64,000 nt of DNA, from positions 41,969 to 105,968 of the forward strand of contig CACFFJ010000003.1 in the NCBI GenBank assembly GCA_902565645.1, read 5' to 3'. This stretch comes from an uncultured Candidatus Actinomarina sp. (lineage in GTDB: Bacteria; Actinomycetota; Acidimicrobiia; Actinomarinales; Actinomarinaceae). This document shows positions 8,735 through 38,223 of this stretch, piece by piece. Within the stretch, counting starts at the first letter, position 1. Every line of letters starts with the position of its first letter. The translations under genes and the position numbers were made by a program. The notes beneath the pieces were generated by a model. That model saw only the letters and a list, made by a program, of their open reading frames with translations, did not search any database and had not been told where the DNA came from.

Positions 8735-9638
8735 ATAAGCTATTAAACATTGCGTTATATTTATTCATACCATCCGGTATGGTATATTTTTTTGAATTAA
8801 TGTAAGCATAATTTGTGTCAACATTCTTAAATTTAAAAGAATCTGGAGAAAAAATAGAATCTTGATGTAAAATCTTATCAGCTATCCCAACATCTGTTGA
8901 GAAAATTGGTGTCTTAGTTATACCGCACTCAAGTATTGCCTGCGGACCACCTTCAAGTCTAGATGTAACTAAATACAAATCTAGAACATTGTATAGTTTG
9001 TTTAACATATCATAGTCCACCATTTCAAAATACTCATATGGAATTTTGTTCTCTTCCAGATGATTGATAATATACTGTCTCCTCTTTCCAGCAAGTACTA
9101 CCTTTACATCTTTAATCTCATTATTTATTTTTTTTACAATGTCAACAAAAATATCTGGCCCCTTAATAAGCTTTGGTGACTCAAGATCGTGACCTTCTGT
9201 GTCTCTTTGGAAACTTCCAATTAAAAATTCCGACTCATTAAAATTCAGTGTTTTTCTTAATTTATTTTTTTCATGAATTTCATAATAAATATTTTGATTC
9301 ACCCAAAAAGGGATTGAAGTAATTTTTTTACTTGTTAGTTTCTTTAATTGTTCAATTGTCTTGTCTGAAATAACGTGGTACTCATCCACAAAATAGTCTA
9401 GAGAATAAAAGTCGTCATCATCAAAACTTTCAGCATCTATATGATATAAAGAACATATTACTTTTGCTCTCTTTAAGTGTTTTTTAGATATTTTTTTCCA
9501 AGTCCAAGGTGAGATAATCCAGATAATATCTGATTCTTTAATTTTTTCTGTGACTTGAGAGCTATTATTCTTAATCCATTCACTTCTAAATCTATCTACT
9601 ACCCAATTTTCATTGATTTTATTAAGAAATATTTTCAT
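8724..9638 (-). CDS. putative glycosyltransferase (GT1/GT4-like)
   Basis: 304 aa with VTSRLEGGPQAILECGITKTPIFSTDVG. It overlaps the downstream gene by 11 nt. Confidence 0.6.
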   Translation of the reverse strand: MKIFLNKINENWVVDRFRSEWIKNNSSQVTEKIKESDIIWIISPWTWKKISKKHLKRAKVICSLYHIDAESFDDDDFYSLDYFVDEYHVISDKTIEQLKKLTSKKITSIPFWVNQNIYYEIHEKNKLRKTLNFNESEFLIGSFQRDTEGHDLESPKLIKGPDIFVDIVKKINNEIKDVKVVLAGKRRQYIINHLEENKIPYEYFEMVDYDMLNKLYNVLDLYLVTSRLEGGPQAILECGITKTPIFSTDVGIADKILHQDSIFSPDSFKFKNVDTNYAYINSKKYTIPDGMNKYNAMFNSLYEN

Positions 9639-9701
9639 AAATTTGTCTCATTACATATAATAGAATTTTCCAATTAGTAAATTACTTAATTTAAACTTTA
9701 A

Positions 9702-10682
9702 TTGATGGAAAATATTTTAATAACAGGAATATCTGGGCAAGATGGGCTTTTTTTAACAGCAAAATTACTAAATGAAAATAACAAAATTAAAATATTTGGT
9801 ACATCTAGGAATCCCTCTAAAATTTTTTTTGATAAGCTTAATACATTAGTCGGTGAAAATAAATTTAGCAATGTTGAACTAATTAAAATAGATCTAAATA
9901 ATTTTTCTAATGTTCAAGAATTAATTAATAAGGTTGAACCATGTTCAGTGTACAACCTTTCCGGTCCAAGCTCTGTCTATAATTCACTTAAAGACAGTGA
10001 AAATACTTCGAGGCAAATACTAAATATATTTGATAATCTAACAGAAGCATTAATCAAGAATAATCAATTTCCAAATTTTTTCCAGGCATCTTCATCTGAA
10101 ATGTTTGGCAATATTTCTTCAACTTTTCTAGATGAAAGTTCAGAATTTAATCCAAACTCACCATACGCAGTTTCAAAATTAGAAAACCACTATAAAGCAC
10201 TAGAGCTAAATAAGAATTATAATTGGCCGATAAAATCAGGAATATTATTTAATCACGAATCAGAATTTAGAAACAAAGACTATTTAATAATGAAACTAAT
10301 TTCTTCTGCTTTCAAAATTCAAAAAGGGGAAATAAAATACTTAGAACTGGGGAGTCTTTCATACATTCGTGACTGGTCGTTTGCTGGTGACACCATAAAT
10401 GCCATCTATGAAATTACCAATAATGGATCCTTATCGCATTATGTTATTGGAACAGGAGTTGAAAAATCTATAGAAGATATGGCAAAAATAGTATTCTCAT
10501 ATTTTGATCTTGATTTAGATAACTATTTAAAAATCAATAAAAGTTTACTGAGAAAAGGTGATCCTGTAAGGGTTGTTTCAAACCCAAGCAAACTAAAGGA
10601 GGAGTTACTCTGGAAACCTAAATTAGAATTTGAAGATTTAATTTATCGATGTATAAAAAAAGGAATTAAGTACTTGGAGTAA
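9702..10682 (+). CDS. Gmd-like NDP-sugar 4,6-dehydratase paralog (extended SDR)
   Basis: 326 aa with ILITGISGQDGLFLTAKLL, QASSSEMFG, SPYAVSKL and LFNHESEFR. The Gmd AAQSHV segment is replaced by SGPSSV. Confidence 0.7.
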   Translation: MMENILITGISGQDGLFLTAKLLNENNKIKIFGTSRNPSKIFFDKLNTLVGENKFSNVELIKIDLNNFSNVQELINKVEPCSVYNLSGPSSVYNSLKDSENTSRQILNIFDNLTEALIKNNQFPNFFQASSSEMFGNISSTFLDESSEFNPNSPYAVSKLENHYKALELNKNYNWPIKSGILFNHESEFRNKDYLIMKLISSAFKIQKGEIKYLELGSLSYIRDWSFAGDTINAIYEITNNGSLSHYVIGTGVEKSIEDMAKIVFSYFDLDLDNYLKINKSLLRKGDPVRVVSNPSKLKEELLWKPKLEFEDLIYRCIKKGIKYLE

Positions 10683-18084: not shown

Positions 18085-18116
18085 AATTAGAATTTTCTGA
18101 TTTATTATTCATTTTG

Positions 18117-18189
18117 TGGCCAGAGGCAGAATCGAACTGCCGACCCCTTGTTTTTCAGACAAGTGCTCTACCGACTGAGCTATCTGGCC
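18117..18189 (-). tRNA. tRNA-Phe (anticodon GAA)
   Basis: The reverse complement GGCCAGATAGCTCAGTCGGTAGAGCACTTGTCTGAAAAACAAGGGGTCGGCAGTTCGATTCTGCCTCTGGCCA folds as a 73-nt cloverleaf. The anticodon loop is CTGAAAA. CCA is not encoded. Confidence 0.9.
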
Positions 18190-18195
18190 TTAAAG

Positions 18196-18270
18196 CGGGG
18201 ACGACGGGATTCGAACCCGCGACCTCCTGCGTGACAGGCAGGCGTAAACTCCAGACTTTACCACGCCCCC
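18196..18270 (-). tRNA. tRNA-Asp (anticodon GUC)
   Basis: The reverse complement GGGGGCGTGGTAAAGTCTGGAGTTTACGCCTGCCTGTCACGCAGGAGGTCGCGGGTTCGAATCCCGTCGTCCCCG has anticodon loop CTGTCAC, T loop TTCGAAT and a paired acceptor stem (one G-U). Confidence 0.9.
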
Positions 18271-18317
18271 GTAACTATAAAGTATAACTTAAAAATAATT
18301 AACCCGATTAAATAATT

Positions 18318-19775
18318 TTGCAATATCATATATATGTAATGAAAATTAAAAACATTTTAAAATACTTTGTAAGGTTTTTGTTCTTACAGTCTCTAATTTC
18401 ATTTCTTACTATTTGGTATTTTGATAACTATCTCTTTCAGAACCCAGAACATAAATTTAATATTTATCTGAAATTAGTTGAAGATAGGGAAAGATTCTAC
18501 AGTTTGATACCTTTGAGCTGGCTAACTGTAGATGCTTTAATTTTTGCAATCGTTGCATTATTTTTAATTCTTCTGTATTCAACAAAATTCTACACTTATG
18601 TAAATGAATTAGATTTTTCTTATGATAATAGATATATAGATGACTTCTTCATGTTATACCTTATGTGGAATAGTTACTTATTTTCGGCTTTATACATTTT
18701 TAGGGTTTCTGGATTATCACGCAGTTACCTAATGTTGTTTACGGTAATAATACCTACGATATTGTTAATTTTCAGAAATAGCGAAGTATTATCAATTTTG
18801 CTTGGAAGATCAGTAATTAATGAAAACTTTATTTCATTTAATTTAGATGAGTTTTCTAATTTTAGAAATTTAAGAATTGCAGCATTTAGAAGAAATGTTC
18901 AGTCAATCCAATGTAGTGAAGAAGAATTCTCCAAAGTTATACCCGATGAAATAAGTAAATTAAACAAAATTAAGAATATAAATTTAGTTATTTTGAAACT
19001 TGTTTCCAAGAATAGCTTGAGTAAAGACTTGGAAAAGTATTTGATAAATCTAAATAAAAAAGTTTTAATAATTTCAAATAATGAGTTATCTTTTAAGAGT
19101 AACTTTATTTATAGAGTTGAAAATGTTAACGATAATTATCTTTATTATTTCAACAACGATATTCAATATGGGGCTAAATATATTATAAAAAGACTTTTTG
19201 ATATTTCTTTATCAATTATCTTAATAATAATTTTATTTCCATTTTTTATCCTTATATGTGTATACATCTGGAAACTTGATTCAACTCCAATATTTATAAA
19301 GCAAGTTAGGGTTGGGTTACATGGTAAAAAATTTAATATGTTGAAATTCAGGACAATGTATATAAACTCACACGAAAAAAGAGACCAACTTAAAGACTTA
19401 AATCCAAAAGGAGGGCCCCTGTTTAAAATTGATAATGACCCAAGGCTAATAAATGGGGCCAAAGTTATAAGAAGATTAAGTATTGATGAATTGCCTCAGT
19501 TAATAAATGTAATTAAAGGTGAAATGTCTCTCGTCGGACCAAGGCCTTTGTTTGCTGATGATACTGAATATTTTGATAAAAATTATATGAGAAGATTAAA
19601 CGTTTTACCTGGAATGACGGGTCTATTACAAATTAACGATAGGAATACTGACGATTTTGAAATTTGGTATAAATATGATATGGAATACATTGAAAATTGG
19701 AGTTTGTACCTTGACGTAAAAATACTTTTAAAAACCTTTTCAGTAATTATTAGTAATAAAAATTCAGGTGTATAA
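18318..19775 (+). CDS. polyprenyl-phosphate sugar phosphotransferase (WbaP/bacterial sugar transferase family), initiating enzyme
   Basis: 485 aa with N-terminal TM helices. The C-terminal domain has PIFIKQVRVGLHGKKFNMLKFRTM and DELPQLINVIKGEMSLVGPRP. The listed start is TTG; an ATG at 18339 is an alternative. Confidence 0.85.
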   Translation: MQYHIYVMKIKNILKYFVRFLFLQSLISFLTIWYFDNYLFQNPEHKFNIYLKLVEDRERFYSLIPLSWLTVDALIFAIVALFLILLYSTKFYTYVNELDFSYDNRYIDDFFMLYLMWNSYLFSALYIFRVSGLSRSYLMLFTVIIPTILLIFRNSEVLSILLGRSVINENFISFNLDEFSNFRNLRIAAFRRNVQSIQCSEEEFSKVIPDEISKLNKIKNINLVILKLVSKNSLSKDLEKYLINLNKKVLIISNNELSFKSNFIYRVENVNDNYLYYFNNDIQYGAKYIIKRLFDISLSIILIIILFPFFILICVYIWKLDSTPIFIKQVRVGLHGKKFNMLKFRTMYINSHEKRDQLKDLNPKGGPLFKIDNDPRLINGAKVIRRLSIDELPQLINVIKGEMSLVGPRPLFADDTEYFDKNYMRRLNVLPGMTGLLQINDRNTDDFEIWYKYDMEYIENWSLYLDVKILLKTFSVIISNKNSGV

Positions 19776-19805
19776 GTAAAATAAATTACTGAATAGCATT
19801 GGATT

Positions 19806-21440
19806 ATGAAACTTAGTGAAAAAATAATTAGTAATAAATTTGAATATTTTCTTTTCTTATTACTAGCAGTTACAACATTATGGCTAAAAGAAATAAACTT
19901 TCTATTTTATGATACTAATGAAAGTCCAGATTTTGGTAAGTACTTTGTCTATATCAAGCATTTTTTTGATAATAGTTTAACATCACATGAACATGGACTA
20001 ATGTATTACTACTTACATGCATTAAATTACGATATTTTCTATTCTGAGTCAGTTAATACATATCTTGCTCTTCATAAATCAATACAACAAGTAAATTTTT
20101 ATATATATTTATTTGGTCTGTTAGGTTACTTCAATCTATTCCGCTTTTTCAATTTTTCAAGAATCTCTATCTATCTAACTTTCATTTTTATTAATTTTTT
20201 TCCTCCATCAATATCAATGAGGCTTGTTTTTAAACCTGAAATCTTAGCTTTTGCATTAATGCCTTGGGTAATATATTTTATAGAAAAATATTCAAGAGAT
20301 AAAAAAATTAAACACTTAGTTTTCTGTATACCTTTTTTGGTTTCTGCAGTAACACTTAAAGGAAACGTACTTGTAATTCTTATGGTCTACTTGTTTTATA
20401 GCTACTACAAATTAATTTTTAAAATGAAATTAAAAAACTTCTTATTGATTATTTTGTTGTTCTTTTCAACAACATTAATGGTGACTTTAGAAAATAACTC
20501 TGCAAACGGAAAGAATATATTAGACATACAGAGTGGTTCTGCAAATGAAGCTAACTATGATTTTAAAGCTCCCAGTTCTATTATTTTTAAAACAGATCTA
20601 TATGAACTTTTATCTAGTCCAATAAAACACAGCCATGCAGACTCCTTTATTGGAATTACTTTACTTGAAACAACTGGTGATTATTTTGATTTATATTGGG
20701 ATAATGATGCTACAAATTATTTTAAAAACAGAAAAAATTTTATTGAATTTAGGCAATCTAATGAAATCAAGGGTCCCGAATTTAATTCAGAAAACTTTGC
20801 TATAACGATATATCAACAAAGAAAGACTGATGTCTATATTTATGAATCTATTGGCTTAATAATTTCTATATATTTATTTTATTTACTTATAAAAAACACT
20901 CTTCAAAATAAAAAATATAGGAAATTTCTTTTTGCTTCATTTTTAGGAATGGTTATATTGCTATTTCATTCAATTTCAGGAATACCAAGAAATAATTTTG
21001 ATCCTTTGGTAGGTGACACATTTAAACCTTTATATTATTCATTCGTTTTTATATTCAGCTTTGCTTTTTTATTCGTAATACTATTTGAATCAAAAAAAAT
21101 AAAGACTGCTCATGTTTTTATTTATATGTTTCTAGTTGTTTTCTTGCTAGGGTTTCCAAAAGAACAAGATTATGATTTACAAGTAAACTTGGTTAACAAA
21201 ATACAAGATTCTATATATTGTGAAATTGAAAAAAATATATACTTAAGAGGTTCAGATTTTAAGAATATAGATTGTAAAATAGACCAAGGTATATATCCAG
21301 ATAGTCCTGATCCGAAGATAGAATTGTTTAAAAATGACTTAAATCATAAGCCGTTTAATTTAATATTAATTTTTTCTTATGTTTCAATAGCCTTTTACTC
21401 AATCATTAATAAAAGAAAAATTAAATTTTCCTCAACCTGA
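19806..21440 (+). CDS. polytopic membrane protein, function unknown (weak GT-C-like pattern)
   Basis: 544 aa with more than 10 TM segments. An acidic first loop (YDTNESPDFGKYF) and a later FKPEIL are weakly reminiscent of ArnT/PMT-type GT-C enzymes. Confidence 0.5.
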   Translation: MKLSEKIISNKFEYFLFLLLAVTTLWLKEINFLFYDTNESPDFGKYFVYIKHFFDNSLTSHEHGLMYYYLHALNYDIFYSESVNTYLALHKSIQQVNFYIYLFGLLGYFNLFRFFNFSRISIYLTFIFINFFPPSISMRLVFKPEILAFALMPWVIYFIEKYSRDKKIKHLVFCIPFLVSAVTLKGNVLVILMVYLFYSYYKLIFKMKLKNFLLIILLFFSTTLMVTLENNSANGKNILDIQSGSANEANYDFKAPSSIIFKTDLYELLSSPIKHSHADSFIGITLLETTGDYFDLYWDNDATNYFKNRKNFIEFRQSNEIKGPEFNSENFAITIYQQRKTDVYIYESIGLIISIYLFYLLIKNTLQNKKYRKFLFASFLGMVILLFHSISGIPRNNFDPLVGDTFKPLYYSFVFIFSFAFLFVILFESKKIKTAHVFIYMFLVVFLLGFPKEQDYDLQVNLVNKIQDSIYCEIEKNIYLRGSDFKNIDCKIDQGIYPDSPDPKIELFKNDLNHKPFNLILIFSYVSIAFYSIINKRKIKFSST

Positions 21441-23424
21441 ACCTACTGTTTAAAATCAAGATAATAAATGCATAAAAACAAAAAGGTACAAAGTAATTAA
21501 GAGAGTCATTTTTAAACGTATTTATAAATATATAGGTTGTGATCAAAACAAACTCATAATTTTTTCTGTTTTTATATAGAAATAAAAGTAAAGTCAAAAC
21601 TAATAAAACTAATGGCAAAACTCCAAAAAACAATAAGTAAGACAAGAATGATGAGTGTGGTAGCAAGAAAGATTCTGTACAAATAAACTTGGTTGTCAAA
21701 ATACAAAATTCTGTTTTGTTTATAACTACTTCTCCATAAAGTTGACCAAAATTTAAAGGACCAGATCCAAATAAAAATTCCATAAAAGTAGGATTATATC
21801 TACTGAAAAACACTCCCCATATTTCTGATCTATTTAAGAAGTAGGCAATTGTACTAAAGAAACTAAAAAAATATGAATACATAGTAGAATTTTCAAAATT
21901 TTTATTTAGTAACGTAAGATAGCTTGAATAAATGCTATCAAACTGAGAAGCATTTGCCTTATCTATTAATGACTCACTTAAAAATTGATAAGATAAAGTA
22001 AAGTTATTCGAACCTACTACTAATAAAAGCATAGCTATGACTACAAGAGAAATTAAAATATAGCCAATAAAGTTTTTCTTAGTTTGAAATTTGTTATTTA
22101 GAAGAAATAAATAAATTATTATTATGGAAAAAACTAATACAATAACTGTTCTATTGTCAGAGAAATATAGACCTAAAGCAGAAGAAAATATCCCAACTAT
22201 TCTGAAAAAATTTAACTTTTGAGTTTTAACAATATTAAAGAGTAGAAAAATCAAACAAATACCATAGAACTCTCCAATGGTTTCAGCACTAGGAGAAATA
22301 CCCCGCCAAGCTATTTTTAATGAATATTCATCGATTGAAAAAGGATTCTGTATATCAATCCCAAGTCTCTGGAGTCCTAAAAAATAATAATTGAAAAAAT
22401 TTATAATAGGAAAATTTGCACCTATGTAACTAGTTATTAGCAGAGCTGAAGAAGTAATACTTAGATTTTGAGTAAAAGAATCTAAATTGAATTTCTCTTT
22501 TAAATTTATATATATAAATTGAATCCCTTTTAGTAAAAGAAAAAAATAAATAATCCAAAACAAATTAGCATTAAATTCATAAATGCTGCTTGAGAATCCT
22601 CGGAACTTACCTAGGTTAAATGAATAACTCCCAGTTGAATTAAAAATCCACCAAGTTGATAAAGCTAAAAATACTTTATTAAATGTTTTATTAAATACAG
22701 AGTTGTCTTCTTTAGATACTAACGACTGGAAGCCAAAATAAACCAACAGCATTGATAAAAAATTAAGATTAAATCCACTGAATAATGCTGAAACTAAGTA
22801 CAAATAAGGAATGTAGTTTATAATGACATCTGACCTTTCCATAAAGGTCTCAACAAGTATTTTCAGCAACAAAAGAAAGGAAAAGAAAATTGGTATATAT
22901 GAATCAAGATAGTCAAAATCAAACAAGTAAAAGTTTTTTTCATAAAATCTGCTCTCACTATAAATTGAAAAGGTAAACAAATAAGAAACTAAGATTAAAG
23001 TCAGATTATGAAACCTTCTTTCAATCCTTTTATCATCTGGATTTTTATTTTTTGGTATAAAGCTAAATAAAATTATCCAAATGAATCCTTGAAATAATAA
23101 ATTTATAAATGAATTAGTACCTAATGAAATATAGAAAGCTGTTTCGAGGCTTTTTTCCAATACTGTAACTCCAGTTACCCTCCCAAAACATTTTATAGAC
23201 GACTTATTATCAAAACGAAAATAAAAGTGGTCTTGATAAATACTCTCGGAATTAGCTTTTAAAAAGTCAAATAGTGAAGCTTTGCATGGATTTATTTCAT
23301 AAAATGTAACATCTTCTTGGCTAACTTTTGCAGCAGGAACATTATTATCCAGGTGACTATTAAACCATGGTGCTACTAATAACAATACAATAAGAAAAAC
23401 TTTTGTTATCGTTTTTAATTCCAT
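21421..23424 (-). CDS. large polytopic membrane protein, function unknown (possible O-antigen-polymerase-like segment)
   Basis: 667 aa with a signal/anchor, a roughly 90-aa extracytoplasmic segment and many TM helices. LGLYFSDNRTVIVLVFSIII is loosely Wzy_C-like. Confidence 0.5.
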   Translation of the reverse strand: MELKTITKVFLIVLLLVAPWFNSHLDNNVPAAKVSQEDVTFYEINPCKASLFDFLKANSESIYQDHFYFRFDNKSSIKCFGRVTGVTVLEKSLETAFYISLGTNSFINLLFQGFIWIILFSFIPKNKNPDDKRIERRFHNLTLILVSYLFTFSIYSESRFYEKNFYLFDFDYLDSYIPIFFSFLLLLKILVETFMERSDVIINYIPYLYLVSALFSGFNLNFLSMLLVYFGFQSLVSKEDNSVFNKTFNKVFLALSTWWIFNSTGSYSFNLGKFRGFSSSIYEFNANLFWIIYFFLLLKGIQFIYINLKEKFNLDSFTQNLSITSSALLITSYIGANFPIINFFNYYFLGLQRLGIDIQNPFSIDEYSLKIAWRGISPSAETIGEFYGICLIFLLFNIVKTQKLNFFRIVGIFSSALGLYFSDNRTVIVLVFSIIIIYLFLLNNKFQTKKNFIGYILISLVVIAMLLLVVGSNNFTLSYQFLSESLIDKANASQFDSIYSSYLTLLNKNFENSTMYSYFFSFFSTIAYFLNRSEIWGVFFSRYNPTFMEFLFGSGPLNFGQLYGEVVINKTEFCILTTKFICTESFLLPHSSFLSYLLFFGVLPLVLLVLTLLLFLYKNRKNYEFVLITTYIFINTFKNDSLNYFVPFCFYAFIILILNSRFRLRKI

Positions 23425-23729
23425 ATTTTCACAAAAAATTTAAGTTTATTTTTAAAAAAACTAATAAATAATAACAAAATAACAATATAAAAAAGAACAT
23501 CTTGAAAAAATATCTCATTATTTATATCTGGCGAAAAACCCCAGCCTCCTGAAACGTAATGTTCACATTCAGTAAAAGAATTTACAAACACTTTATTTCC
23601 TTCTGAATCAAATAATTGCTTAATTGAATAGTTTGGATCGTTCTCAAAAACATAGTTTGGATCATTAGAAATATCTACCTTAATGAAATTAACTGGATAT
23701 TCACCGCATAATTTAGTAACTAAACTCAT
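23415..23729 (-). CDS. small C-terminally anchored protein, function unknown
   Basis: 104 aa. The soluble N-domain has a duplicated NDPNY motif, followed by one C-terminal TM helix. There is a 10-nt overlap with the downstream membrane protein gene. Confidence 0.45.
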   Translation of the reverse strand: MSLVTKLCGEYPVNFIKVDISNDPNYVFENDPNYSIKQLFDSEGNKVFVNSFTECEHYVSGGWGFSPDINNEIFFQDVLFYIVILLLFISFFKNKLKFFVKIWN

Positions 23730-23792
23730 AAAACCCTCTTATTAAAAAATTCTAATTAATAAAAAACTATATATTAGATTATTAAAATTTTG

Positions 23793-23865
23793 TGGGTCGG
23801 GTGGGAATCGAACCCACGACCTTGAGCTTAAAAGGCTCCTGCTCTACCAATTGAGCTACCGACCC
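23793..23865 (-). tRNA. tRNA-Lys (anticodon UUU)
   Basis: The reverse complement is GGGTCGGTAGCTCAATTGGTAGAGCAGGAGCCTTTTAAGCTCAAGGTCGTGGGTTCGATTCCCACCCGACCCA. The anticodon loop is CTTTTAA and the length is 73 nt. Confidence 0.9.
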
Positions 23866-23918
23866 TATCAATCATTAAAGAATACTAGATAAAAAATATT
23901 TAATTACGAAAATTATAA

Positions 23919-24236
23919 TTATTCTTCTTCAAAATCCTTGGTTTCATTATTTAGGTTTAAAATTTTTGCTCTTGTATCATTAATGGTTTTTGATACTTCT
24001 TCATTAATCTTTTTTATTATTTCTTTTGTTTCATTTTTGATATCTTCATCTTTAATGGTCGAATCAATTAATTTATTTAAACTCTTAAACAATTCAGAGG
24101 TGTTATCTATTGTGCTTCCTAAAGAGCCTTTCAAGTCTCCGACTAAGTCTTCGTCCTTAATTTTACTTTTGATTTTATCGGTAACCTCTGAAATGTCTTC
24201 AGATATATTCTCCCAACTACTGTTTTCATTACTCAT
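23919..24236 (-). CDS. acidic, Lys/Glu/Asp-rich hypothetical protein
   Basis: 105 aa (MSNENSSWENISEDISEVTDKIK...). The composition is hydrophilic and helix-like, and the gene is co-directional with the upstream gene. The overlapping plus-strand ORF 23938..24267 looks like its antisense shadow. Confidence 0.5.
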   Translation of the reverse strand: MSNENSSWENISEDISEVTDKIKSKIKDEDLVGDLKGSLGSTIDNTSELFKSLNKLIDSTIKDEDIKNETKEIIKKINEEVSKTINDTRAKILNLNNETKDFEEE

Positions 24237-24255
24237 ATATGAAATTATAAATTAT

Positions 24256-25098
24256 TTAAATTTTTGATTTATCTTTAAATTTTAAATTTGGATTTTTTGT
24301 TAACCTTTGTTTTGCCCATCTTGCTGGCGCTATTAACTTAAAAAATGGTGGAAGAAATGGTCTTATTATTTTCAACATTTTTAAGTTAAATCCTAAAACT
24401 ATATTTTTTAACTTTGATTGTTTAACTTCGTAAAGAGTTTTAAATTCTTCAGGTAGGGTCTGAAATGCAGTGAAAGCTATAAATGGCCATATTGGTTTAA
24501 TATGTAATGGGACAGGACCTCCTTTTATTATTTCTTCTACATCTTTTGCAACGTCAGTTTTTAATAGGTAATCTTTTTCTCTGGATTTTTTAACTATCCA
24601 CTCTTTAAGTTCTATATGTGTTTGTGGCATTAACTTTCTATCAATAAGTACTAACTCTGCAGCAACCATGTTCTCTTTATGGTATTGGTTTTTCTCTACT
24701 TCAGTAAGTTTTCTAACTGTTTTCTCATAAAAATATATTGAAGAGACTTGCAGGCAAGCATGGACCCATAAAAGCTGTTCTTGGTCTAAAGCGTCATATA
24801 TACCACCAGTTACTTCATCCTTGCCCTTTATTACCTCATGTAATTTATTAATTCTGATTGCACTTTCATCAGCCTCTTTTTTTGTACCAAAAGTAACTGA
24901 ATTTTGTAATGATAAGGTTCTAATTAATCGTTTCCAAGGATCCCTCTGGTAAAAAGATGTTTGCCTTGCTCCAGCAGCTATCAATGGATGAGCAGCGTGC
25001 ATTAATAACGCCCTAGCACCCCCAAAAAGAACTGTTATCTCTTTGTTAACTTCCCACATCATTGATTTTGGACCAAAATATCCTGGATCTCCTTGCAT
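24256..25098 (-). CDS. MpaB/DUF2236-family oxygenase-like protein
   Basis: 280 aa. YFGPKSMMWEVNKEITVLFGGARALLMHAAHPLIAAG...RDPWKRLIRT matches my memory of the DUF2236 N-terminal pattern. Confidence 0.65.
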   Translation of the reverse strand: MQGDPGYFGPKSMMWEVNKEITVLFGGARALLMHAAHPLIAAGARQTSFYQRDPWKRLIRTLSLQNSVTFGTKKEADESAIRINKLHEVIKGKDEVTGGIYDALDQEQLLWVHACLQVSSIYFYEKTVRKLTEVEKNQYHKENMVAAELVLIDRKLMPQTHIELKEWIVKKSREKDYLLKTDVAKDVEEIIKGGPVPLHIKPIWPFIAFTAFQTLPEEFKTLYEVKQSKLKNIVLGFNLKMLKIIRPFLPPFFKLIAPARWAKQRLTKNPNLKFKDKSKI

Positions 25099-25238
25099 AT
25101 ATAAATTTTATCAACCTTTATAGCTATTAATAATTACTTTGGTTCTTAAGAAGCCGTTTCTTTTCTTAAGTTAAATTTTGGGAATATCTATTTCCCTTCA
25201 TTAATATCTTCTTTTTGCTAATCAAGTAATATAGGTAT

Positions 25239-26576
25239 ATGCGGATTAAATTACTTATTTTAGCTCTCTTTGTTGCATTTTGCGGCGGAACATCTTCTGA
25301 AGGAGTAGATGCTGCTCAAGAAACTTCCACTACCGCTGCTCAAGAAACTTCCACTACGGCTGCTCAAGAAACTTCCACTACGGCTGCTCAAGAAACTTCC
25401 ACTACAACAGTTGCTAATATACCTAATATTCCTGCAGTTGATTTTGATATCCAAGAAATTTACAACACGAAATTAGTCGTTGAGCTTTGTGAAGATGCAA
25501 AAGATATTGAAAATACATCAGAAGAGTGTTTGAAACAATATTTAGACAATCTAGAAATAGTATTTGGTTATGCCGAAAGATTAGAAACATATATAAATGA
25601 TCTAGTAAATTATTTCGAAGAATACCCTGACCAAATGACGGAGCAGTATAAAAATTTATTTGATTTTATAAATACTGAGTGGCAAAGCGTTCCTCCTACA
25701 TATGGTACTGTGGCAATGAAATATACTCAAAGATTTGGTGGTGGAAGTATGCCAGGTGGTGGAAGTATGCCAGGTGGTGGAAGTATGCCAGGTGGTGGTT
25801 CCGGTGGATATACAGGAGGAAGTGATGACCCTCCTCAGTTGAAGAATTTATTGATTATGAATTGGGGGCCATACGATTCCTCCACAGCTATTTCTGGAGA
25901 TTTTGAGTTTAGTACAGCTAAGCAATTTATATATTTCGATGAGTTTGGTAGAGTCCATTCAGCTGGAACCCCTAATGCTTATGACAACCCAGCATTTGAA
26001 TATAAGGTGCCTTTAGATACGAAAGTATATATCCCAGCAGACGGTATTGTTGACTATATTCAATGGCAACCTTCTTCAGGATACAAACAAGATGATTGGG
26101 AGCTAACTATTAAACCAAGAGACGGAAGTGACTGGAGATTAGTAATAGACCATATTGTTAGCATTAGTTGTGAAAGAGCAGCTGGAGTTATTTGTGATAA
26201 CCCTATAACTGTGAACGGAGTTGAATTAACAAGTGGAATGACGGTTACAGCAGGAGATCTTCTTGGATATGTTGGAAACTTTGAAGATGGAGATGGAAAC
26301 GTAATTGGTAGAACAGAAATAACAGTTGGAAAATATGTTGCGGGCAGTGGGAGTAGTGGTGGAAATAAGGATTTTAACAACTATTGCCCAATGAATTACC
26401 TTCATGAAAGCGTGAAGTCAACTCTTGAAGCCTCAGTTACAGAGTTGATGGCCTCTTATGAATCATGGAAGGGTGATTCATCTTTTTATGATGAGGCCGA
26501 TATGGTTGCTCCTGGGTGTTGGTATTCAGAAATTTTGGAAGATGGGAATACTGGAAAAACAGTTCCTACTAAGTAA
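25239..26576 (+). CDS. secreted or lipid-anchored repeat protein, function unknown
   Basis: 445 aa with a signal peptide (MRIKLLILALFVAFCGG), 4x AAQETSTT and 3x GGSMPG repeats. The C-terminal beta-rich domain (VYIPADGIV..., VIDHIV..., VTAGDLLGYVG) is only loosely M23/LytM-like. Confidence 0.7.
   Translation: MRIKLLILALFVAFCGGTSSEGVDAAQETSTTAAQETSTTAAQETSTTAAQETSTTTVANIPNIPAVDFDIQEIYNTKLVVELCEDAKDIENTSEECLKQYLDNLEIVFGYAERLETYINDLVNYFEEYPDQMTEQYKNLFDFINTEWQSVPPTYGTVAMKYTQRFGGGSMPGGGSMPGGGSMPGGGSGGYTGGSDDPPQLKNLLIMNWGPYDSSTAISGDFEFSTAKQFIYFDEFGRVHSAGTPNAYDNPAFEYKVPLDTKVYIPADGIVDYIQWQPSSGYKQDDWELTIKPRDGSDWRLVIDHIVSISCERAAGVICDNPITVNGVELTSGMTVTAGDLLGYVGNFEDGDGNVIGRTEITVGKYVAGSGSSGGNKDFNNYCPMNYLHESVKSTLEASVTELMASYESWKGDSSFYDEADMVAPGCWYSEILEDGNTGKTVPTK
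25311..25406 (+). repeat. 4 x 24-bp near-perfect tandem repeat (coding, AAQETSTT)
   Basis: gctgctcaagaaacttccactacN occurs four times head to tail. Only the last base of the unit varies. Confidence 0.95.
25740..25793 (+). repeat. 3 x 18-bp perfect tandem repeat (coding, GGSMPG)
   Basis: ggtggaagtatgccaggt occurs three times head to tail, flanked by further ggt codons. Confidence 0.95.
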
Positions 26577-26639
26577 GCTTATTAAGAAACCATTTCTTTA
26601 CAATTTTTACACAAATATAATTAAATATGAAGTTAATTT

Positions 26640-27758
26640 ATGAAACAAAAATTACTCACATATATTACTTATCAGACTTTCCCTGCTGAAACAGCAAACA
26701 GTTTACAAACAATATCAAACATAAAATACTTTGTAAAAAATGGTTATGCAGTATCCCTGTACTTTCCCCTAAGGGATGAATTGAGCTCTGATAATATAAA
26801 TGAAATTAGTAAATACTACAGTATTGATGAAAAGTTTGAACTTGTTGGGTTAAAACATAATTTGCCATTTGGTAAAATAAAATTTTTTAAACCACTGTGG
26901 TTCCACATAAGTCATTTCTTATGGTCGAAAAAAAGTGTCAAAAATATTTTAAAATCTACAAAAAATGACCAAGTCTATTTCACTAGATCAGATTGGGTAT
27001 TATATTTTTTAGCTAAAAAAAATAAACATGTTATTTTTGAATGTCATCAGATTTCCAAAATAAGAAACTTAATCTTAAAAATTGTTTCTAAGAAAAAAAA
27101 TGTAAAAGTTATTTTTCTTAATGAAAAACTAGAAGAATACTTTACCCACCTTAATTTGAACTCAATTGTGCTACACAGTGGTGTTGATACTGACCTCTTC
27201 TTAGAATCAGATACTTTTAAAAAGGATAAGAAAAAAGTTGTTTTTGTAGGAAATCTATTAAGGTTTGGAAAAACAAGAGGTCTTGATTTTATAATTAATG
27301 CATTTACTGAATATGATAACTTGAAAGATTACACTCTAGAAATTATAGGAGGACCAAAAAAGGAAGCTGAAAAATTAATGCATTCATTACAAGAAAAAAA
27401 TATAAAAAATATTTCTATAACTGGAAGGCTTGATAGGAAAAATACAATTAAAAAAATCCAAGAATCAAGCATTGGTATTTTAATTAATTCCGACAAATCA
27501 ATACATTCAACAGATTTCACTTCACCCCTTAAATATTTTGAATATATATATGGTAATTTATCTGTAGTTGCTGTTGATTTTCCTTCTCATAGAATACTTC
27601 CTCATTCTGAAAGAATTAAATATTTTCCAATAGGAAATTTTGATGAATTTATTAAATCTATTTTAACTTCAAATTTAGAAATAAAAGAAATTGACTTAAC
27701 CAATATATCATTGGATTATCGAGTAAAGGAAATTATAAAATTTATAGAAAATAGTTAG
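26640..27758 (+). CDS. putative glycosyltransferase (GT-B, family 4-like)
   Basis: 372 aa. It has GT4-like architecture, with VVFVGNLLRFGKTRG and a C-terminal TSPLKYFEYIYGNLSVVAVDFPSH, but it is divergent. Confidence 0.6.
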   Translation: MKQKLLTYITYQTFPAETANSLQTISNIKYFVKNGYAVSLYFPLRDELSSDNINEISKYYSIDEKFELVGLKHNLPFGKIKFFKPLWFHISHFLWSKKSVKNILKSTKNDQVYFTRSDWVLYFLAKKNKHVIFECHQISKIRNLILKIVSKKKNVKVIFLNEKLEEYFTHLNLNSIVLHSGVDTDLFLESDTFKKDKKKVVFVGNLLRFGKTRGLDFIINAFTEYDNLKDYTLEIIGGPKKEAEKLMHSLQEKNIKNISITGRLDRKNTIKKIQESSIGILINSDKSIHSTDFTSPLKYFEYIYGNLSVVAVDFPSHRILPHSERIKYFPIGNFDEFIKSILTSNLEIKEIDLTNISLDYRVKEIIKFIENS

Positions 27759-27832
27759 CACGCCCGGAGGGATTCGAACCCCCAACCCTCTGATCCGAAG
27801 TCAGATGCTCTATCCAATTGAGCTACGGACGC
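27759..27832 (-). tRNA. tRNA-Arg (anticodon UCG)
   Basis: The reverse complement is GCGTCCGTAGCTCAATTGGATAGAGCATCTGACTTCGGATCAGAGGGTTGGGGGTTCGAATCCCTCCGGGCGTG. The anticodon loop is CTTCGGA. The acceptor stem has two G-U pairs. The 3' end abuts the stop codon of the convergent CDS. Confidence 0.85.
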
Positions 27833-32785: not shown

Positions 32786-33415
32786 ATGGTAAATGGATAT
32801 ATAAATTTAGATAAAGAACATGGTGATTTTATGTCTACATTAAAAAAAATAGGCATAAAAAAAATAAAGTTAGATAAGGTTGAGAAACAAAATCAGCTTG
32901 ATATTGTTATAACTTCTTTATCTAAATATGGTGAGACAAAGAAAAATCTTTCAAATATTGAGTCATCAAGTAATCCAATCCCTAGCTTGATAGTTGTAAA
33001 TAATAAAGAATTTGATCAAACTGTTGATTTAATTAGAAACAACAAAATTGAAATAATTTCAAATAAAAGCCTCCTGGGTGAAATTAATGCAAGAATAGAT
33101 TCATTATTAGGAGATAGTAATTCAGAAAAGTTAGAGTTCAAAGATTTAGTTATTAATTTAAAAACTTATGAAGCGAAAGTTGATAATGTACTCCTAGATT
33201 TAACATTCATGGAATATGAGCTATTGAAGTTTTTTATTGAAAATCAAGAAAATGTTTGGTCTAGAGAAGACATTCTTGAAAAAGTATGGGGATATGATTA
33301 TTTCGGTGGTGCAAGAACAGTTGATGTTCACGTAAGAAGATTGAGATCAAAACTTGGAGAAAGAAGAGCTTACTGGATTAAAACCGTTCATTCAGTTGGA
33401 TATAAGTTTAACTAA
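32786..33415 (+). CDS. OmpR/PhoB-family winged-helix regulator with a degenerate receiver domain (GlnR/GlnRII-like orphan)
   Basis: 209 aa. The C-terminal trans_reg_C pattern is LTFMEYELLKFFIENQ...RTVDVHVRRLRSKLG...VHSVGYKF. The N-terminal roughly 110 aa lack the DD pocket and the usual phospho-Asp. An alternative start is the ATG at 32831. The gene is divergent from glnII. Confidence 0.7.
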   Translation: MVNGYINLDKEHGDFMSTLKKIGIKKIKLDKVEKQNQLDIVITSLSKYGETKKNLSNIESSSNPIPSLIVVNNKEFDQTVDLIRNNKIEIISNKSLLGEINARIDSLLGDSNSEKLEFKDLVINLKTYEAKVDNVLLDLTFMEYELLKFFIENQENVWSREDILEKVWGYDYFGGARTVDVHVRRLRSKLGERRAYWIKTVHSVGYKFN

Positions 33416-33755
33416 AACTATTTCCACACCCACATGTTCTTGAAACATTTGGATTGTCTATTGAAAAACCCGTCTCCATGAGTCCTTCTTTATAGTCCAG
33501 TGTTGCTCCTTGAATGTGGTTAACACTTTCTGAATCAACAACTATATTGACACCATCATATTCTTCAGTTGAGTCACCTTCTAATTTTTCAGTATCAAAA
33601 TACATTTCGTATGAGTAGCCTGAACATCCACCAGGTTTTACTCCCATCCTTAAGAAGCTCTCGGCTGCATCTTCAGCTAGTTTTAACTCATTTAGTTTTT
33701 TTACAGCACTTTCAGTTGCTAAAACTATTCTTGATGATTTTATTTGTAAATCCAT
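33408..33755 (-). CDS. iron-sulfur cluster insertion protein (HesB/IscA/ErpA family)
   Basis: 115 aa with GGCSGYSY and a C-terminal CGCGNSF. Confidence 0.9.
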   Translation of the reverse strand: MDLQIKSSRIVLATESAVKKLNELKLAEDAAESFLRMGVKPGGCSGYSYEMYFDTEKLEGDSTEEYDGVNIVVDSESVNHIQGATLDYKEGLMETGFSIDNPNVSRTCGCGNSFS

Positions 33756-33830: not shown

Positions 33831-34964
33831 ATGATTCAAAATGATATTCTCTTGAAACATTTGTCGACTGTAATGGATCCGGAGTTAGGTGTAAATATCG
33901 TTGACCTCGGTATGGTTAAAAATCTAACATATAATGATTCAGAAATCACTATTGATCTTGCCTTGACAATTGCAGAGTGTCCTATGAGGAACCAAATAGA
34001 GTCTGAGATAAAAAGGAAACTTAAATTAATTGAAAACGTAAAAGAAGTAAAAATAAATGTAGTAGCAATGAATAAAGAAGATAGGGCCGCATTAATGTCA
34101 GTAGCTAGAAAAAATGCAAGAGAAAAAGCTGTACCTACACAGATCAATACACGTACAAGAGTAATAGCAATAGGAAGTGGTAAGGGTGGTGTTGGGAAAT
34201 CTACAATCTCAACAAATCTTGCTGTTGGTCTTGAGAAGTTAGGATTCACTACAGGATTACTTGATGCCGATATTTGGGGATTTTCAATACCTAGGTTACT
34301 AGGAATAGAAGGTCGGCTTGAAGCAAACGAAGAGAAGAAAATTATTCCATATAAAAAAGGGCGTTTGGAAGTCGTGTCTACTGGTTTAATAGCTGAAGAT
34401 GAAGACACTGCTTTAATGTGGAGAGGTTTAATGCTAAGTAAGGCATTAGAACAATTCTTATTTGATGTAGCTTGGGGTAATCTTGATTATTTAGTCATTG
34501 ACCTACCACCTGGTACGGGAGATATTCAAATGGCTCTAGGTAGGCTATTGCCTCAAACAGAATTACTTGTAATAACAACTCCTCAACCAAGTGCGCAAAA
34601 AGTTGCAACCAGAGTTGCGGACATGGCAAAAAGAAGTTTTATACCCCTGTTAGGTGTTGTAGAAAATATGTCTTATTTTGAAACAAGTGATAAAAATAAA
34701 TATCAAATTTTTGGGAAAGGTGGTGGAGATAAGCTTGCAGAAAAATTTGGCATACCATTATTAAGCAAAGTGCCTATAAGTGAAACATCTGTAGAGGAAT
34801 CAGAAAATGGGATTCCAATTCTTTTACAAGAAGATGAAAGTCCTACCAAAAATGCTCTCCAAGATCTTGTCACTAAGATTACAAAAGTTTTACCACCAGT
34901 CTCGGATGAAACATGTACAGGTAGGCTGGCTAAAGTTCTTGAAGAATTAGAAGCAGATCAATAA
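33831..34964 (+). CDS. Mrp/ApbC-family Fe-S cluster carrier ATPase with an N-terminal DUF59/MIP18 domain
   Basis: 377 aa with LSTVMDPELGVNIVDLGMV, a deviant Walker A (IGSGKGGVGKST) and DLPPGTGD. Confidence 0.9.
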   Translation: MIQNDILLKHLSTVMDPELGVNIVDLGMVKNLTYNDSEITIDLALTIAECPMRNQIESEIKRKLKLIENVKEVKINVVAMNKEDRAALMSVARKNAREKAVPTQINTRTRVIAIGSGKGGVGKSTISTNLAVGLEKLGFTTGLLDADIWGFSIPRLLGIEGRLEANEEKKIIPYKKGRLEVVSTGLIAEDEDTALMWRGLMLSKALEQFLFDVAWGNLDYLVIDLPPGTGDIQMALGRLLPQTELLVITTPQPSAQKVATRVADMAKRSFIPLLGVVENMSYFETSDKNKYQIFGKGGGDKLAEKFGIPLLSKVPISETSVEESENGIPILLQEDESPTKNALQDLVTKITKVLPPVSDETCTGRLAKVLEELEADQ

Positions 34965-34969
34965 ATTTT

Positions 34970-36265
34970 ATGGATAATGTATCTGTAAACAAATTAGTAG
35001 ATTCATATGAGAATCACCTACCTAGGGAAATTTGTTTAAGTGTGGCTAAAGATATTGTAAGCAAGTTTACGGATAAAGAAATTATTCTTCTGGAATACAA
35101 ATTAGCAATTGATAATTTAATGATAGGCGAACAAGTAAAAGTAGTTAACTGCACAGGGACACTTCTGCATACAAATCTTGGAAGAGCACAAACGGAGATA
35201 TCGTTCAGCGGCCACGCATCAAATATAGAATTTGACTTAAGTAATCAAAAAAGAGGTGAAAGAAATAGATATTTGACTTATGCAATGAATTTACTACTAG
35301 GTTCAGAGGGGGTTTGTTTTGTAAACAATAATGCTTCTTCATTATTTATTTCACTTAATATAATGAAAAAATCTAAAGGTATAGATTCAGTAATAATCTC
35401 CAGGGGAGAGGTTGTTGAGATTGGTGGTTCTTATAGGTTGCCCGAAATAATTGCTGAAACAGGATTAAAACTTATTGAAATTGGAACAACAAATAAAACG
35501 CATAAAAGAGATTATTCTTCTGCTTTAAAGCAGAATCCAAAAGCAGTTATTTTGAAAGTAAATAGATCTAATTTCTCGATCTCCGGGTTTGTTGAGGAAG
35601 TTTCGATTAGTGAATTAAAAACTATCGCTGATGAATATGGAGCATTGCTTATTCATGATATGGGTAGTGGTTTAGTTATTGAAAAAAAATTCTTAGAAAA
35701 AAACAATATTGACTATTTCAAAAATGAACAGCATGTTCAAGACTCACTTAAAGATGGGGCTGATTTGGTAATGTTTTCAGGAGATAAATTATTTGGCTCT
35801 ATACAGGCAGGAATTATTGCAGGAAGGAAACAGCTTATAAATAACATTAAAGAATCTCCACTTTTTCGAACATATCGCTGTTCCCCAGTTGTTACCTATG
35901 AGCTTCAGAGAACAACTAATTTATACTTGTCTAAAAAAGAAAATTTGATACCTCTTTGGAATTCTCTACAAGTTACGTATGATCAGTTGTTAGAAAGAGT
36001 TAAAAATATTTCAAACAAATTAACATTGGATCACTCTATAAATGATGACTATTCATTAATTGGAGGAGGAAGCATGCCTGAGGTAAAGATACCGTCCCCT
36101 GTTATATCAATAGCTACTTCAGAAGATAACAATATTTTAAGTAAGTTAGCAAGTTTAGAAATACCAGTAATTCCTAGAATTAAAGATAGCAAGGTTATTT
36201 TTGATATAAGATCATCATTTGAGGCTGATGACCCACTTATTATTAATGCGCTAAACAATTTATGA
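34970..36265 (+). CDS. selA: L-seryl-tRNA(Sec) selenium transferase
   Basis: 431 aa with NCTGTLLHTNLGRA and the PLP-lysine region FSGDKLFGSIQAGIIAGRK. There is an ATGA overlap with selB. Confidence 0.85.
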   Translation: MDNVSVNKLVDSYENHLPREICLSVAKDIVSKFTDKEIILLEYKLAIDNLMIGEQVKVVNCTGTLLHTNLGRAQTEISFSGHASNIEFDLSNQKRGERNRYLTYAMNLLLGSEGVCFVNNNASSLFISLNIMKKSKGIDSVIISRGEVVEIGGSYRLPEIIAETGLKLIEIGTTNKTHKRDYSSALKQNPKAVILKVNRSNFSISGFVEEVSISELKTIADEYGALLIHDMGSGLVIEKKFLEKNNIDYFKNEQHVQDSLKDGADLVMFSGDKLFGSIQAGIIAGRKQLINNIKESPLFRTYRCSPVVTYELQRTTNLYLSKKENLIPLWNSLQVTYDQLLERVKNISNKLTLDHSINDDYSLIGGGSMPEVKIPSPVISIATSEDNNILSKLASLEIPVIPRIKDSKVIFDIRSSFEADDPLIINALNNL

Positions 36266-37947
36266 CAGTATTAGCAACAGCAGGACATGTAGACCACGGT
36301 AAGTCTACATTTGTAAGTTTTCTTACAAGTCAAGAAACTGACAGATTGCCTGAAGAAAAAAATAGAGGTCTTACAATTAATCTTGGATATACATTTTTCA
36401 ACCACAAAAACCAAACTTATTCAATTGTCGATGTACCTGGTCATAGTGATTTTTTCAAAAATACCATGTCAGGATTTTCAAATGCTGATTTAATTCTATT
36501 TATAATTGATGCAAGTCAGGGCTGGTCTGCACAATCTGAACAACATTTCAATGCTTTAACTGAACTCGGTAAAAAAAATTTTATATTTGTATATACGAAA
36601 ACTGACTTGATTAATTCACCAATAGACACTGATGATTTGGACGAAAGATTAAAGAAAATAGATAATTTAAACTATACAGTAATTAAATTCAGCATTAAGG
36701 ACTCAAATAAAAATGAGTTGGTTGAACAAATTGTCAGTTTTATTAAATCATGTAATTTCAAAAATAAAATTTCATCTATGTGGATTGATAGGTCTTTCTC
36801 TCTTGAAGGAGTCGGTACAGTAATAACTGGTACTGCAAGTTCTTCATTTAAAACAGATAATATATATTATCCAATAGAGAATGCAAAATTAGAGATCAAA
36901 GAAATACAGAACATAAATAAATCTTATATCAAAAGTATTAATTCAAAAAGAATTGCTTTATCCCTGAAAAAAAGCAACAAAAATATACCGAAAAGAGGTG
37001 ACTTAATATCAAATAGAAATATTGAATTTACTAATTTAATATTTGTCAAATTCAATAAGGAGCTAGGAAATAAAAATTTTACAAAAGGAACCAAAAGATT
37101 GTTTATTGGAACAACAAGTATATTAATAAAGAATATTTGGGGTATAAAATCTAAAAAATTTCAATACGGTTTGATAGAGTTAAAAAAAGAAATGCCTTTC
37201 CTTAAAAAGGAAAATTTTGTAATCCAAAATACTGAAAATAATTTATTCCTAGGTGGCAAATTTTATTTCTTTATTAATAATCAATCTCTAAAAAAGAAGG
37301 TGATTAATTCATCTAAAAACAAAATCGTAATCAATTCTTTGTTTGAGTTATTCAATGCCTTAGAAAAAGATTTCACAGAAAAAGATGAAGCAACCTTTGA
37401 GATAAATAACTGGAGAATTAAAGAAGAACTCAAAGATGAGATTGAAAAAGACATCAAAGAAAACTATAAAAAAATTAATAAATCAGGTTTCGAAAATTAT
37501 ATGGGTAATAAGTATTTTTTAGATAGTAACTTATTAGAAAAACTGGTGGAAAGTTTAGGAGACCTACAACTAATAAATGACCAAATAAAGCTCAAAAAGA
37601 ATGAAAAAATGGTTGATATAGAAATATATGAAGAAGTTAAAGAATTACTTGGACCATCGTTAGATGTTAATGAAATTAGTTTACATAAATATGATAAAGA
37701 GAAAATTAAATCCTTATTTATTAATGAAAGGATTTATAGGATTAGCAAAAATTTAATAATTACTGATTTTCACTTTAATCAAATACTTGAAACACTGAAA
37801 TCGCTACCTGTCGAATTCAGTGTTTCAGATTTTAAAGAAAAAACAAAATTATCTAGAAAGTACACAATACCAATTTTGGAATTATTAGACAAAAAATTAA
37901 TCACAGCAAAGATAGACGGGGGAGGAAAGAGAAAGAAATTACTCTGA
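36262..37947 (+). CDS. selB: selenocysteine-specific translation elongation factor
   Basis: 561 aa with G1 TAGHVDHGKST, G3 DVPGH and G4 TKTD. It has the short EF-Tu-like domains II/III and a long Lys-rich C-terminal extension, as expected for SECIS-binding winged helices. Confidence 0.8.
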   Translation: MTVLATAGHVDHGKSTFVSFLTSQETDRLPEEKNRGLTINLGYTFFNHKNQTYSIVDVPGHSDFFKNTMSGFSNADLILFIIDASQGWSAQSEQHFNALTELGKKNFIFVYTKTDLINSPIDTDDLDERLKKIDNLNYTVIKFSIKDSNKNELVEQIVSFIKSCNFKNKISSMWIDRSFSLEGVGTVITGTASSSFKTDNIYYPIENAKLEIKEIQNINKSYIKSINSKRIALSLKKSNKNIPKRGDLISNRNIEFTNLIFVKFNKELGNKNFTKGTKRLFIGTTSILIKNIWGIKSKKFQYGLIELKKEMPFLKKENFVIQNTENNLFLGGKFYFFINNQSLKKKVINSSKNKIVINSLFELFNALEKDFTEKDEATFEINNWRIKEELKDEIEKDIKENYKKINKSGFENYMGNKYFLDSNLLEKLVESLGDLQLINDQIKLKKNEKMVDIEIYEEVKELLGPSLDVNEISLHKYDKEKIKSLFINERIYRISKNLIITDFHFNQILETLKSLPVEFSVSDFKEKTKLSRKYTIPILELLDKKLITAKIDGGGKRKKLL

Positions 37948-38223
37948 AAAAACTAAATCTCTCTTTCTTTCAACTTCATTTAAGCCACCCCAAATACCGA
38001 AAGGTTCAGCAATTTCCTTTGCTTCTTCAAGACATTCGAGTTTTACTGGACAACTACTGCAAACAGCTTTAGCTTTTGCTTCTCTTTTTTCTCTTTCTTC
38101 TTTCTTCTCGAAAGTAGCAGGAGGGAAAAACAAGTTGCTACTGTGTTGTCTGCACATTGCATCATATTGCCAAGAAGAAATTTTAATTTCCAACATATAG
38201 AAACCATATTTGATAAAAAGCAT
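37939..38223 (-). CDS. WhiB-family transcriptional regulator (4Fe-4S)
   Basis: Four Cys residues are present (C-x28-CSSCPVKLEC), plus GIWGGL followed by a basic tail. The more likely start is the ATG at 38196 (MLEIKISSWQYDAMC...). The gene overlaps the selB 3' end by 9 nt. Confidence 0.85.
   Translation of the reverse strand: MLFIKYGFYMLEIKISSWQYDAMCRQHSSNLFFPPATFEKKEEREKREAKAKAVCSSCPVKLECLEEAKEIAEPFGIWGGLNEVERKRDLVFSE

Follow-up and report, generated by a model that had tools for sequence, protein, structure and literature searches.

The selA-selB gene pair of an uncultured Candidatus Actinomarina and its selenocysteine partner genes in related genomes

Decoding of UGA as selenocysteine (Sec) requires the genes selA, selB, selC, and selD together with at least one selenoprotein gene that bears a selenocysteine insertion sequence (SECIS), and genes with an in-frame TGA for Sec are routinely mis-split by the programs that call open reading frames (ORFs). 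For “Candidatus Actinomarina” (order Actinomarinales, class Acidimicrobiia) the Sec trait has already been described for the whole genus: in “Actinomarina, resolved” (April 2026), Nielsen and Lui reported selC, selA, and selD in 84 out of 84 complete genomes, a SelB that is present but stays under its KEGG profile threshold (268 vs. 306), and, in each genome, approximately five predicted selenoproteins, among them a Sec form of SelD (Nielsen and Lui, 2026; bioRxiv 10.64898/2026.04.03.716425). According to Supplementary Table 8 of the same preprint, selA is located, as a fraction of the genome counted from dnaA, at ~0.87-0.93, selC at ~0.10-0.13, and selD at ~0.075-0.09, or at the mirrored positions. 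Here we report on a selA-selB pair in a stretch of 64,000 nucleotides (contig CACFFJ010000003.1; hereafter the window) from an uncultured member of this genus, and we consider it very likely that this pair is the functional selA-selB of “Ca. Actinomarina.” The window shares with the genomes of the preprint the lineage, the genes, and the sub-threshold SelB; selC and selD, the latter predicted to be a selenoprotein gene, would likewise be located elsewhere. It also shares the position of selA at the right boundary of a tRNA-bounded hypervariable region, beside the tRNAs for Phe, Asp, Lys, and Arg: glycan genes and these four tRNAs (Table 1) are followed by selA 7.1 kb beyond the end of the tRNA-Arg gene. 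Nothing essential is different, and the window adds one more example of the known trait, from a strain with approximately 30% G+C.

The pair can also be compared with the structurally characterized systems of Aquifex aeolicus and Escherichia coli. The SelA of the window aligns with SelA of these species (3w1h/3w1k, 8uzw) over residues 17-426 and has kept the motif of the lysine that binds pyridoxal phosphate (PLP), although with 431 amino acids it is shorter than its counterparts (452-463 amino acids; the A. aeolicus chain has 452). The SelB of the window possesses, like that of both species (4zu9, 5lzb), a G domain, domains II and III, and four winged-helix modules, and its 561 amino acids are close to the 582 of A. 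aeolicus SelB, but it is only 24% identical to 4zu9 in the Foldseek alignment. In E. coli the selAB genes form an operon of their own, whereas those of the window follow mrp. Closer to the window are the high-G+C Acidimicrobiales, which share with it the ATGA-overlapped selA-selB and a SelB N-terminus of the form MTV[LI]ATAGHVDHGKST. Three high-G+C loci (L181, L163, and L128; loci from other genomes are designated here by L and a number) are, however, different in that a selC-like sequence shares an 8-kb block with selB, unlike in Actinomarina, where selC and selD are ~0.18-0.2 genome lengths (~200 kb) away from selAB. Because selC is near selB in these three loci, the dispersed arrangement in Actinomarina is probably derived.

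Sequence comparison identifies the ORF at 34970-36265 as SelA. In profile searches it scored 364.6 bits against TIGR00474 over residues 31-429, passing the equivalog cutoff of 267.9, and 316.9 bits against PF03841 (cutoff 22.8). A sequence search of the PDB paired its residues 17-426 with residues 30-444 of A. aeolicus SelA (3w1h; E 2.6e-69), and in this alignment the motif FSGDKLFG is opposite SGDKLLGG. Lys273, which we take to be the PLP-binding lysine of SelA, is invariant, as is the SGDK motif that contains it, in an alignment of 112 SelA sequences of Actinomarinales. The N-terminal domain of SelA binds the D-arm of tRNA(Sec). In the window this segment is present, though it looks ~13 residues shorter than in 3w1h and is weakly conserved: the alignment with 3w1h opens at residue 17 of the query and residue 30 of the chain, and the match to TIGR00474 opens at profile position 49. 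Among the matches listed, relatives of this SelA range from 98% down to 56% identity, and nearly all span the full 431 amino acids. The ratio of nonsynonymous to synonymous substitution rates (dN/dS) of selA is 0.12-0.25 against six relatives; for the five whose amino-acid identity is 72-85%, it is 0.12-0.14. A search for related loci with the single SelA protein returned only distant SelA of Firmicutes and Deltaproteobacteria.

The ORF at 36262-37947 is SelB at full length, despite a score against TIGR00475 of 222.7 bits, a value that varies with the sequences used in training the profile and that is lower than the curated cutoff of 242.25. The match extends over profile positions 2-566 of 581, i.e., near full length, and the G domain scored 100.1 bits against PF00009. 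In an alignment of 72 SelB sequences of Acidimicrobiia no residue of the G1 and G3 motifs varies, nor does T112 of G4, whose K113 and D115 show a conservation of at least 90%. At the other end of the protein, residues 513-552 match the SelB-specific winged-helix family PF09107 (40.5 bits, cutoff 23.2). The C-terminal winged-helix region pairs with residues 436-575 of 4zu9 in the PDB sequence search, the top matches of which were the SelB structures 4zu9 (E 7.5e-44) and 5lzb_z. Within the core of this region, LSRKY..LE.LD, two residues (R532 and D543) do not vary among the 72 sequences, and two more (K533 and L539) show a conservation of at least 90%. Because of its equivalence to the solved SelB structures, the C-terminal winged helix is presumed to be the SECIS-binding module. 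An AlphaFold2 (AF2) model built on the 72-sequence alignment (mean predicted local distance difference test, pLDDT, 84.4; predicted template modeling score, pTM, 0.72) contains a G domain, two beta-barrel domains (II and III), and four helix-strand modules resembling winged helices at residues 341-559. In a Foldseek search the model was closest to a full-length SelB of bacteria, 4zu9 (E 1e-36 over 595 aligned columns), and to the ribosome-bound SelB of E. coli, 5lzb_z. Since the motifs, the PF09107 domain, the AF2 model, and the Foldseek matches are all intact, the sub-cutoff score is a matter of divergence and not of domain loss. The dN/dS of selB against six relatives is 0.19-0.26. When the window is compared with L166, L122, and L190, SelB proves to have diverged far more rapidly than SelA: amino-acid identities are 59-60% for SelB and 82-85% for SelA, with dN values of 0.29-0.31 and 0.07-0.09, respectively.

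An original prediction, made from the letters of the window and its ORFs, had named the two genes as selA and selB, with GTPase motifs and a long C-terminal extension in SelB and an ATGA overlap between them. All of this is confirmed: SelA by its equivalog match, SelB by its motifs (G1, G3, and G4), by PF09107, and by the AF2 and Foldseek comparisons, the extension by the four winged-helix modules, and the overlap by reading of the sequence (Table 1). The same prediction stated that neither a tRNA-Sec-like sequence nor a pair of ORFs split by an in-frame TGA occurs in the window, and this also holds. ARAGORN found only the tRNAs for Phe, Asp, Lys, and Arg in the window, Rfam at the gathering threshold found only four tRNAs, and BLAST of the window with selC of Actinomarina gave only T-loop matches to those four. 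Three TGA read-through scans of the window retrieved nothing but antisense frames, short read-throughs, and upstream extensions overlapping with neighboring genes. TGA is the stop of 7 out of the 61 chosen ORFs of at least 100 amino acids in the window, and the real genes among them extend at most seven codons past it. The 64-kb window contains no selD either. As selC and selD are, in this genus, ~200 kb from selAB, across the origin, neither is in a window of this size.

In related Actinomarina genomes the partner genes are indeed found. The search pattern M-R-L-T ... G-UGA-[GA]-x-K ... DDA[AG] revealed a Sec-type selD of 342-343 amino acids with UGA at codon 12 (MRLTEYSHGSGUACKLSPSEL...) at nine Actinomarinales loci of ~34% G+C, two of which are on contigs ~1 Mb long. 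The selD of Actinomarina is, as its codons read, itself a selenoprotein gene. The 66 nt 3' of its UGA are almost identical, synonymous sites included, in nine Actinomarinales genomes (L043, L051, L053, L057, L058, L066, L073, L076, and L083) and fold to about -9.9 kcal/mol; their near invariance suggests a constraint at the RNA level, of the SECIS type. A tRNA-Sec of 95 nt with the anticodon UCA was identified by ARAGORN and scored 75.3 bits against RF01852 (cutoff 47). The distance between selC and selD is 28.5 kb on a JGI contig of 960,641 bp and 27.5 kb on JBJKUL010000001.1 of “Ca. Actinomarina sp. LRMED-058.” A read-through scan of ~40 kb walked between selD and selC showed no SelW-like or other UGA gene. 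In the LRMED-058 assembly selA, selB, selC, and selD occur together, with selAB on contig 2 (L132) and selC at locus L195, and selAB co-occurs with the Sec-type selD in four more assemblies (AH-545-I07, bin97s, NIOZ-UU119, and SRR13122196_binner13). The expectation that the partners and at least one selenoprotein gene would be encoded elsewhere in the genome is, therefore, supported in relatives by the occurrence of selC, a Sec-type selD, and selAB in the same assemblies. That such a gene would be mis-annotated proved equally correct for these relatives: public gene calls shorten the Sec-type selD at the UGA, to 318 instead of 342 amino acids (L092-L096), or omit it, as in the indexed calls of NCBI assembly GCA_045563135.1, which have no gene at selD (L097, 427-1383).

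Five contigs recovered from different samples carry one and the same Actinomarina tRNA-Sec, located ~55 nt upstream of an hflX-like GTPase gene; Rfam flags four non-standard pairs in it relative to the family consensus.

In the system as we envisage it, SelA would, as a PLP enzyme, convert Ser-tRNA(Sec) to Sec-tRNA(Sec) with selenophosphate supplied by SelD. SelB, an EF-Tu-like GTPase, would bind Sec-tRNA(Sec) as well as a hairpin just 3' of the in-frame UGA and would then bring Sec-tRNA(Sec) to the ribosome. The two proteins of the window would be translationally coupled through the ATGA overlap of their genes, and selAB is probably co-transcribed behind mrp. In Actinomarina ~27-28 kb separate selD from selC, and both are across the replication origin from selAB.

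Several points weigh against a functional pair. The score of SelB has been mentioned above. Sec activity, a Sec-containing peptide, and a contact between SECIS and SelB are, for this lineage, predictions only. Furthermore, selC, selD, and the selenoproteins were seen in relatives, the closest of which in our comparison has ~77% nucleotide identity over selAB, and for the window's own genome they are deduced from these relatives. Contigs of four marine metatranscriptomes with identities of at least 95% match stretches of mrp, of selA and selB, and of the junction between the two, and one of them bridges this junction at 36224-36428, but they are short, have a depth of 2-8, and may derive from DNA carry-over and, consequently, constitute weak evidence for expression of selAB. 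The iscA gene is far more abundant in the metatranscriptomes. One could argue on such grounds that selAB is a decaying or repurposed remnant in a lineage that no longer decodes UGA as Sec, persisting by chance or in another role, and both the lack of selC, selD, and a selenoprotein gene within the 64-kb window and the SelB score below the curated cutoff would fit. However, selA and selB are intact, and purifying selection acts on them over the range of relatives from 56% to 98% identity. Their catalytic and GTPase motifs have been conserved, selC is present in relatives, as is a selD whose full-length product needs Sec decoding, and the full set was reported for 84/84 genomes (bioRxiv 10.64898/2026.04.03.716425). 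A remnant is, in our view, very improbable.

Even less credible is an assignment of the ORFs to other families, i.e., a lyase-type PLP enzyme related to DgaE and SelA together with a generic translational GTPase. Weak secondary matches to DgaE-type, EF-Tu, EF-1alpha, and IF2-gamma models do exist, but the SelA equivalog match of 364.6 bits contrasts with 37.6 and 26.8 bits for the DgaE models, far below their cutoffs, the selB model is matched over its full length together with the SelB-specific winged-helix domain, and the nearest matches in both sequence and fold are solved SelB structures. The profile searches that might have reassigned either ORF did not do so, and for both ORFs we regard another family as excluded by the profile and structure comparisons. 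Hence, we retain the identification as a functional selA-selB pair.

The neighborhood of the pair also agrees with the original prediction, which placed it between iron-sulfur (Fe-S) trafficking genes (iscA and mrp) and whiB with gaps under 80 nt: the gap between iscA and mrp is 75 nt and that between mrp and selA 5 nt, and whiB overlaps with the 3' end of selB by 9 nt (Table 1). Relatives with a SelA identity of 57-72% have the same order, iscA-[mrp]-selA-selB-whiB; iscA holds its position in L011-L015 and whiB in L011, L013, and L014. A DNA pattern for the selA stop and selB start was found in 90 stretches of species-representative genomes, mostly single-amplified genomes (SAGs) and metagenome-assembled genomes (MAGs) of “Ca. 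Actinomarina,” with some of high-G+C Acidimicrobiales besides. The ATGA overlap is kept in L011-L015 and in most of the loci found with this pattern, including those of the high-G+C Acidimicrobiales. A scan for promoters and terminators around selAB gave no more matches than in shuffled sequence. The G+C content of the window, 30.3%, and the presence of whiB fit a streamlined actinobacterium, and ~94% of the window is coding.

Since mrp is on the same strand as selA and ends just before it, it is probably the first gene of the selAB transcription unit, and the question arises whether it is more than a neighbor brought close by genome compaction. The Mrp-like ATPase could be a working partner in the Sec pathway, e.g., in selenium or sulfur handling. 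In Mrp/ApbC-type NTPases a CxxC normally follows ENMS. The protein of the window has none there (VENMSYFETSDKNKYQIFGKGGG), and its only two cysteines are residues 50 and 362, as in L011 and L012, so that the cluster-bridging CxxC is lacking in all three copies (those of L011 and L012 are both at 8868-9995). The mrp-selA order is, moreover, kept in relatives at 64-72% SelA identity. In the clade with 57% identity (L013-L015, 9893-10001), however, there is no mrp between iscA and selA, and selA directly follows a 107-nt iscA intergenic region; the linkage of mrp and selA is, therefore, not required. In a window that is so densely coding, close spacing is to be expected by chance, and, to our knowledge, no Sec system uses an Mrp protein. 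We thus consider a working role of Mrp in the Sec pathway very unlikely. Similarly improbable is the more specific idea that Mrp was recruited in the low-G+C Actinomarina for, e.g., selenium or sulfur handling or discrimination on behalf of SelA or SelD, with mrp-selA-selB as a functional operon.

Table 1. Positions of the sel genes, their motifs, and neighboring genes in the window (coordinates of the 64,000-nucleotide stretch unless a locus is named) and of selC or selC-like sequences in other genomes.
Feature	Position	Strand	Details
tRNA-Phe, Asp, Lys, and Arg genes	18116..27832	-	ARAGORN and Rfam; right edge of the envelope-glycan hypervariable region
iscA/HesB-type Fe-S carrier gene	33408..33755	-	PF01521, 60.5 bits; divergent from mrp
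mrp/apbC-like P-loop NTPase gene	33831..34964	+	PF10609, 281.6 bits, and PF01883; 5 nt upstream of selA
selA, L-seryl-tRNA(Sec) selenium transferase	34970..36265	+	431 amino acids; profile, structure alignment, dN/dS
SelA FSGDKLFG motif, Lys273 codon	35786..35788	+	motif at residues 269-276; aligns with SGDKLLGGPQAG of 3w1h
ATGA overlap, selB start and selA stop	36262..36265	+	read from the sequence
selB, selenocysteine-specific elongation factor	36262..37947	+	561 amino acids; profile, PDB, AF2, Foldseek, dN/dS
SelB GTPase motifs	36283..36606	+	G1 GHVDHGKST, residues 8-16; G3 DVPGH, 57-61; G4 TKTD, 112-115
SelB C-terminal winged-helix domain	37798..37917	+	residues 513-552; LSRKYTIPILELLD at 530-543
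whiB, convergent with selB	37939..38223	-	PF02467, 75.1 bits; 9-nt overlap with the selB 3' end
tRNA-Sec in relatives	L098-L101 1091-1185; L195 2853-2947		ARAGORN tRNA-SeC and RF01852
selC-like sequences near selB (high-G+C Acidimicrobiales/actinobacterial)	L181 902-995; L163 7748-7828; L128 2158-2238

Actinomarina, which is among the smallest free-living bacteria of the ocean and also among the most abundant of them, thus very probably keeps a full Sec system. Our results add little that is new in this respect but confirm the preprint independently. They do have consequences for the use of public data. Since annotation shortens or drops the Sec-type selD, the selenoproteins of Actinomarina are under-counted in public protein sets. 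Furthermore, the sel genes are dispersed: selAB borders the hypervariable region, and because selD and selC are ~200 kb from selAB, fragmentary MAGs and SAGs will often seem to possess an incomplete pathway.

The positions listed in Supplementary Table 8 of the preprint deserve a comment. In all 32 genomes flagged there as “selC in HVR = Y” (HVR, hypervariable region), selA is at 0.07-0.11, selC at 0.87-0.895, and selD at 0.905-0.92, whereas in the other 52 genomes these genes are at ~0.90, ~0.10, and ~0.08, respectively (bioRxiv 10.64898/2026.04.03.716425). The positions in the 32 genomes are, therefore, mirrored (1 - x) with respect to those in the remaining 52, and the relative arrangement of the sel genes is constant. 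The preprint describes a placement of selC that varies, with the gene inside the hypervariable region of some genomes; this looks like an artefact of genome orientation, and the “secondary hotspot at 10-15%” of the preprint may correspond to the hypervariable region in mirrored position. The statement in its text that selA is at 91-92% in all genomes disagrees with these 32 rows.

Some candidates for a Sec-type selD were rejected. With a first pattern (GUGCK), every Sec-type selD retrieved was from MedAcidi-G1 Acidimicrobiales (44% G+C) and none was from Actinomarina. Of two AT-rich-looking matches to the MedAcidi SelD, P0229 turned out to be a SelD of SAR202/Dehalococcoidia in which the Sec codon is called as Trp, and P0189 was dropped as an Actinomarina candidate, its lineage being without assignment. 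Many of the public SelD entries of AT-rich SAR202/Dehalococcoidia (P0229, P0413-P0433, P0488-P0490, and P0496-P0497) have a Trp at the Sec position (GGWAGK), evidently because the programs that call genes in metagenomes translated the TGA with genetic code 4.

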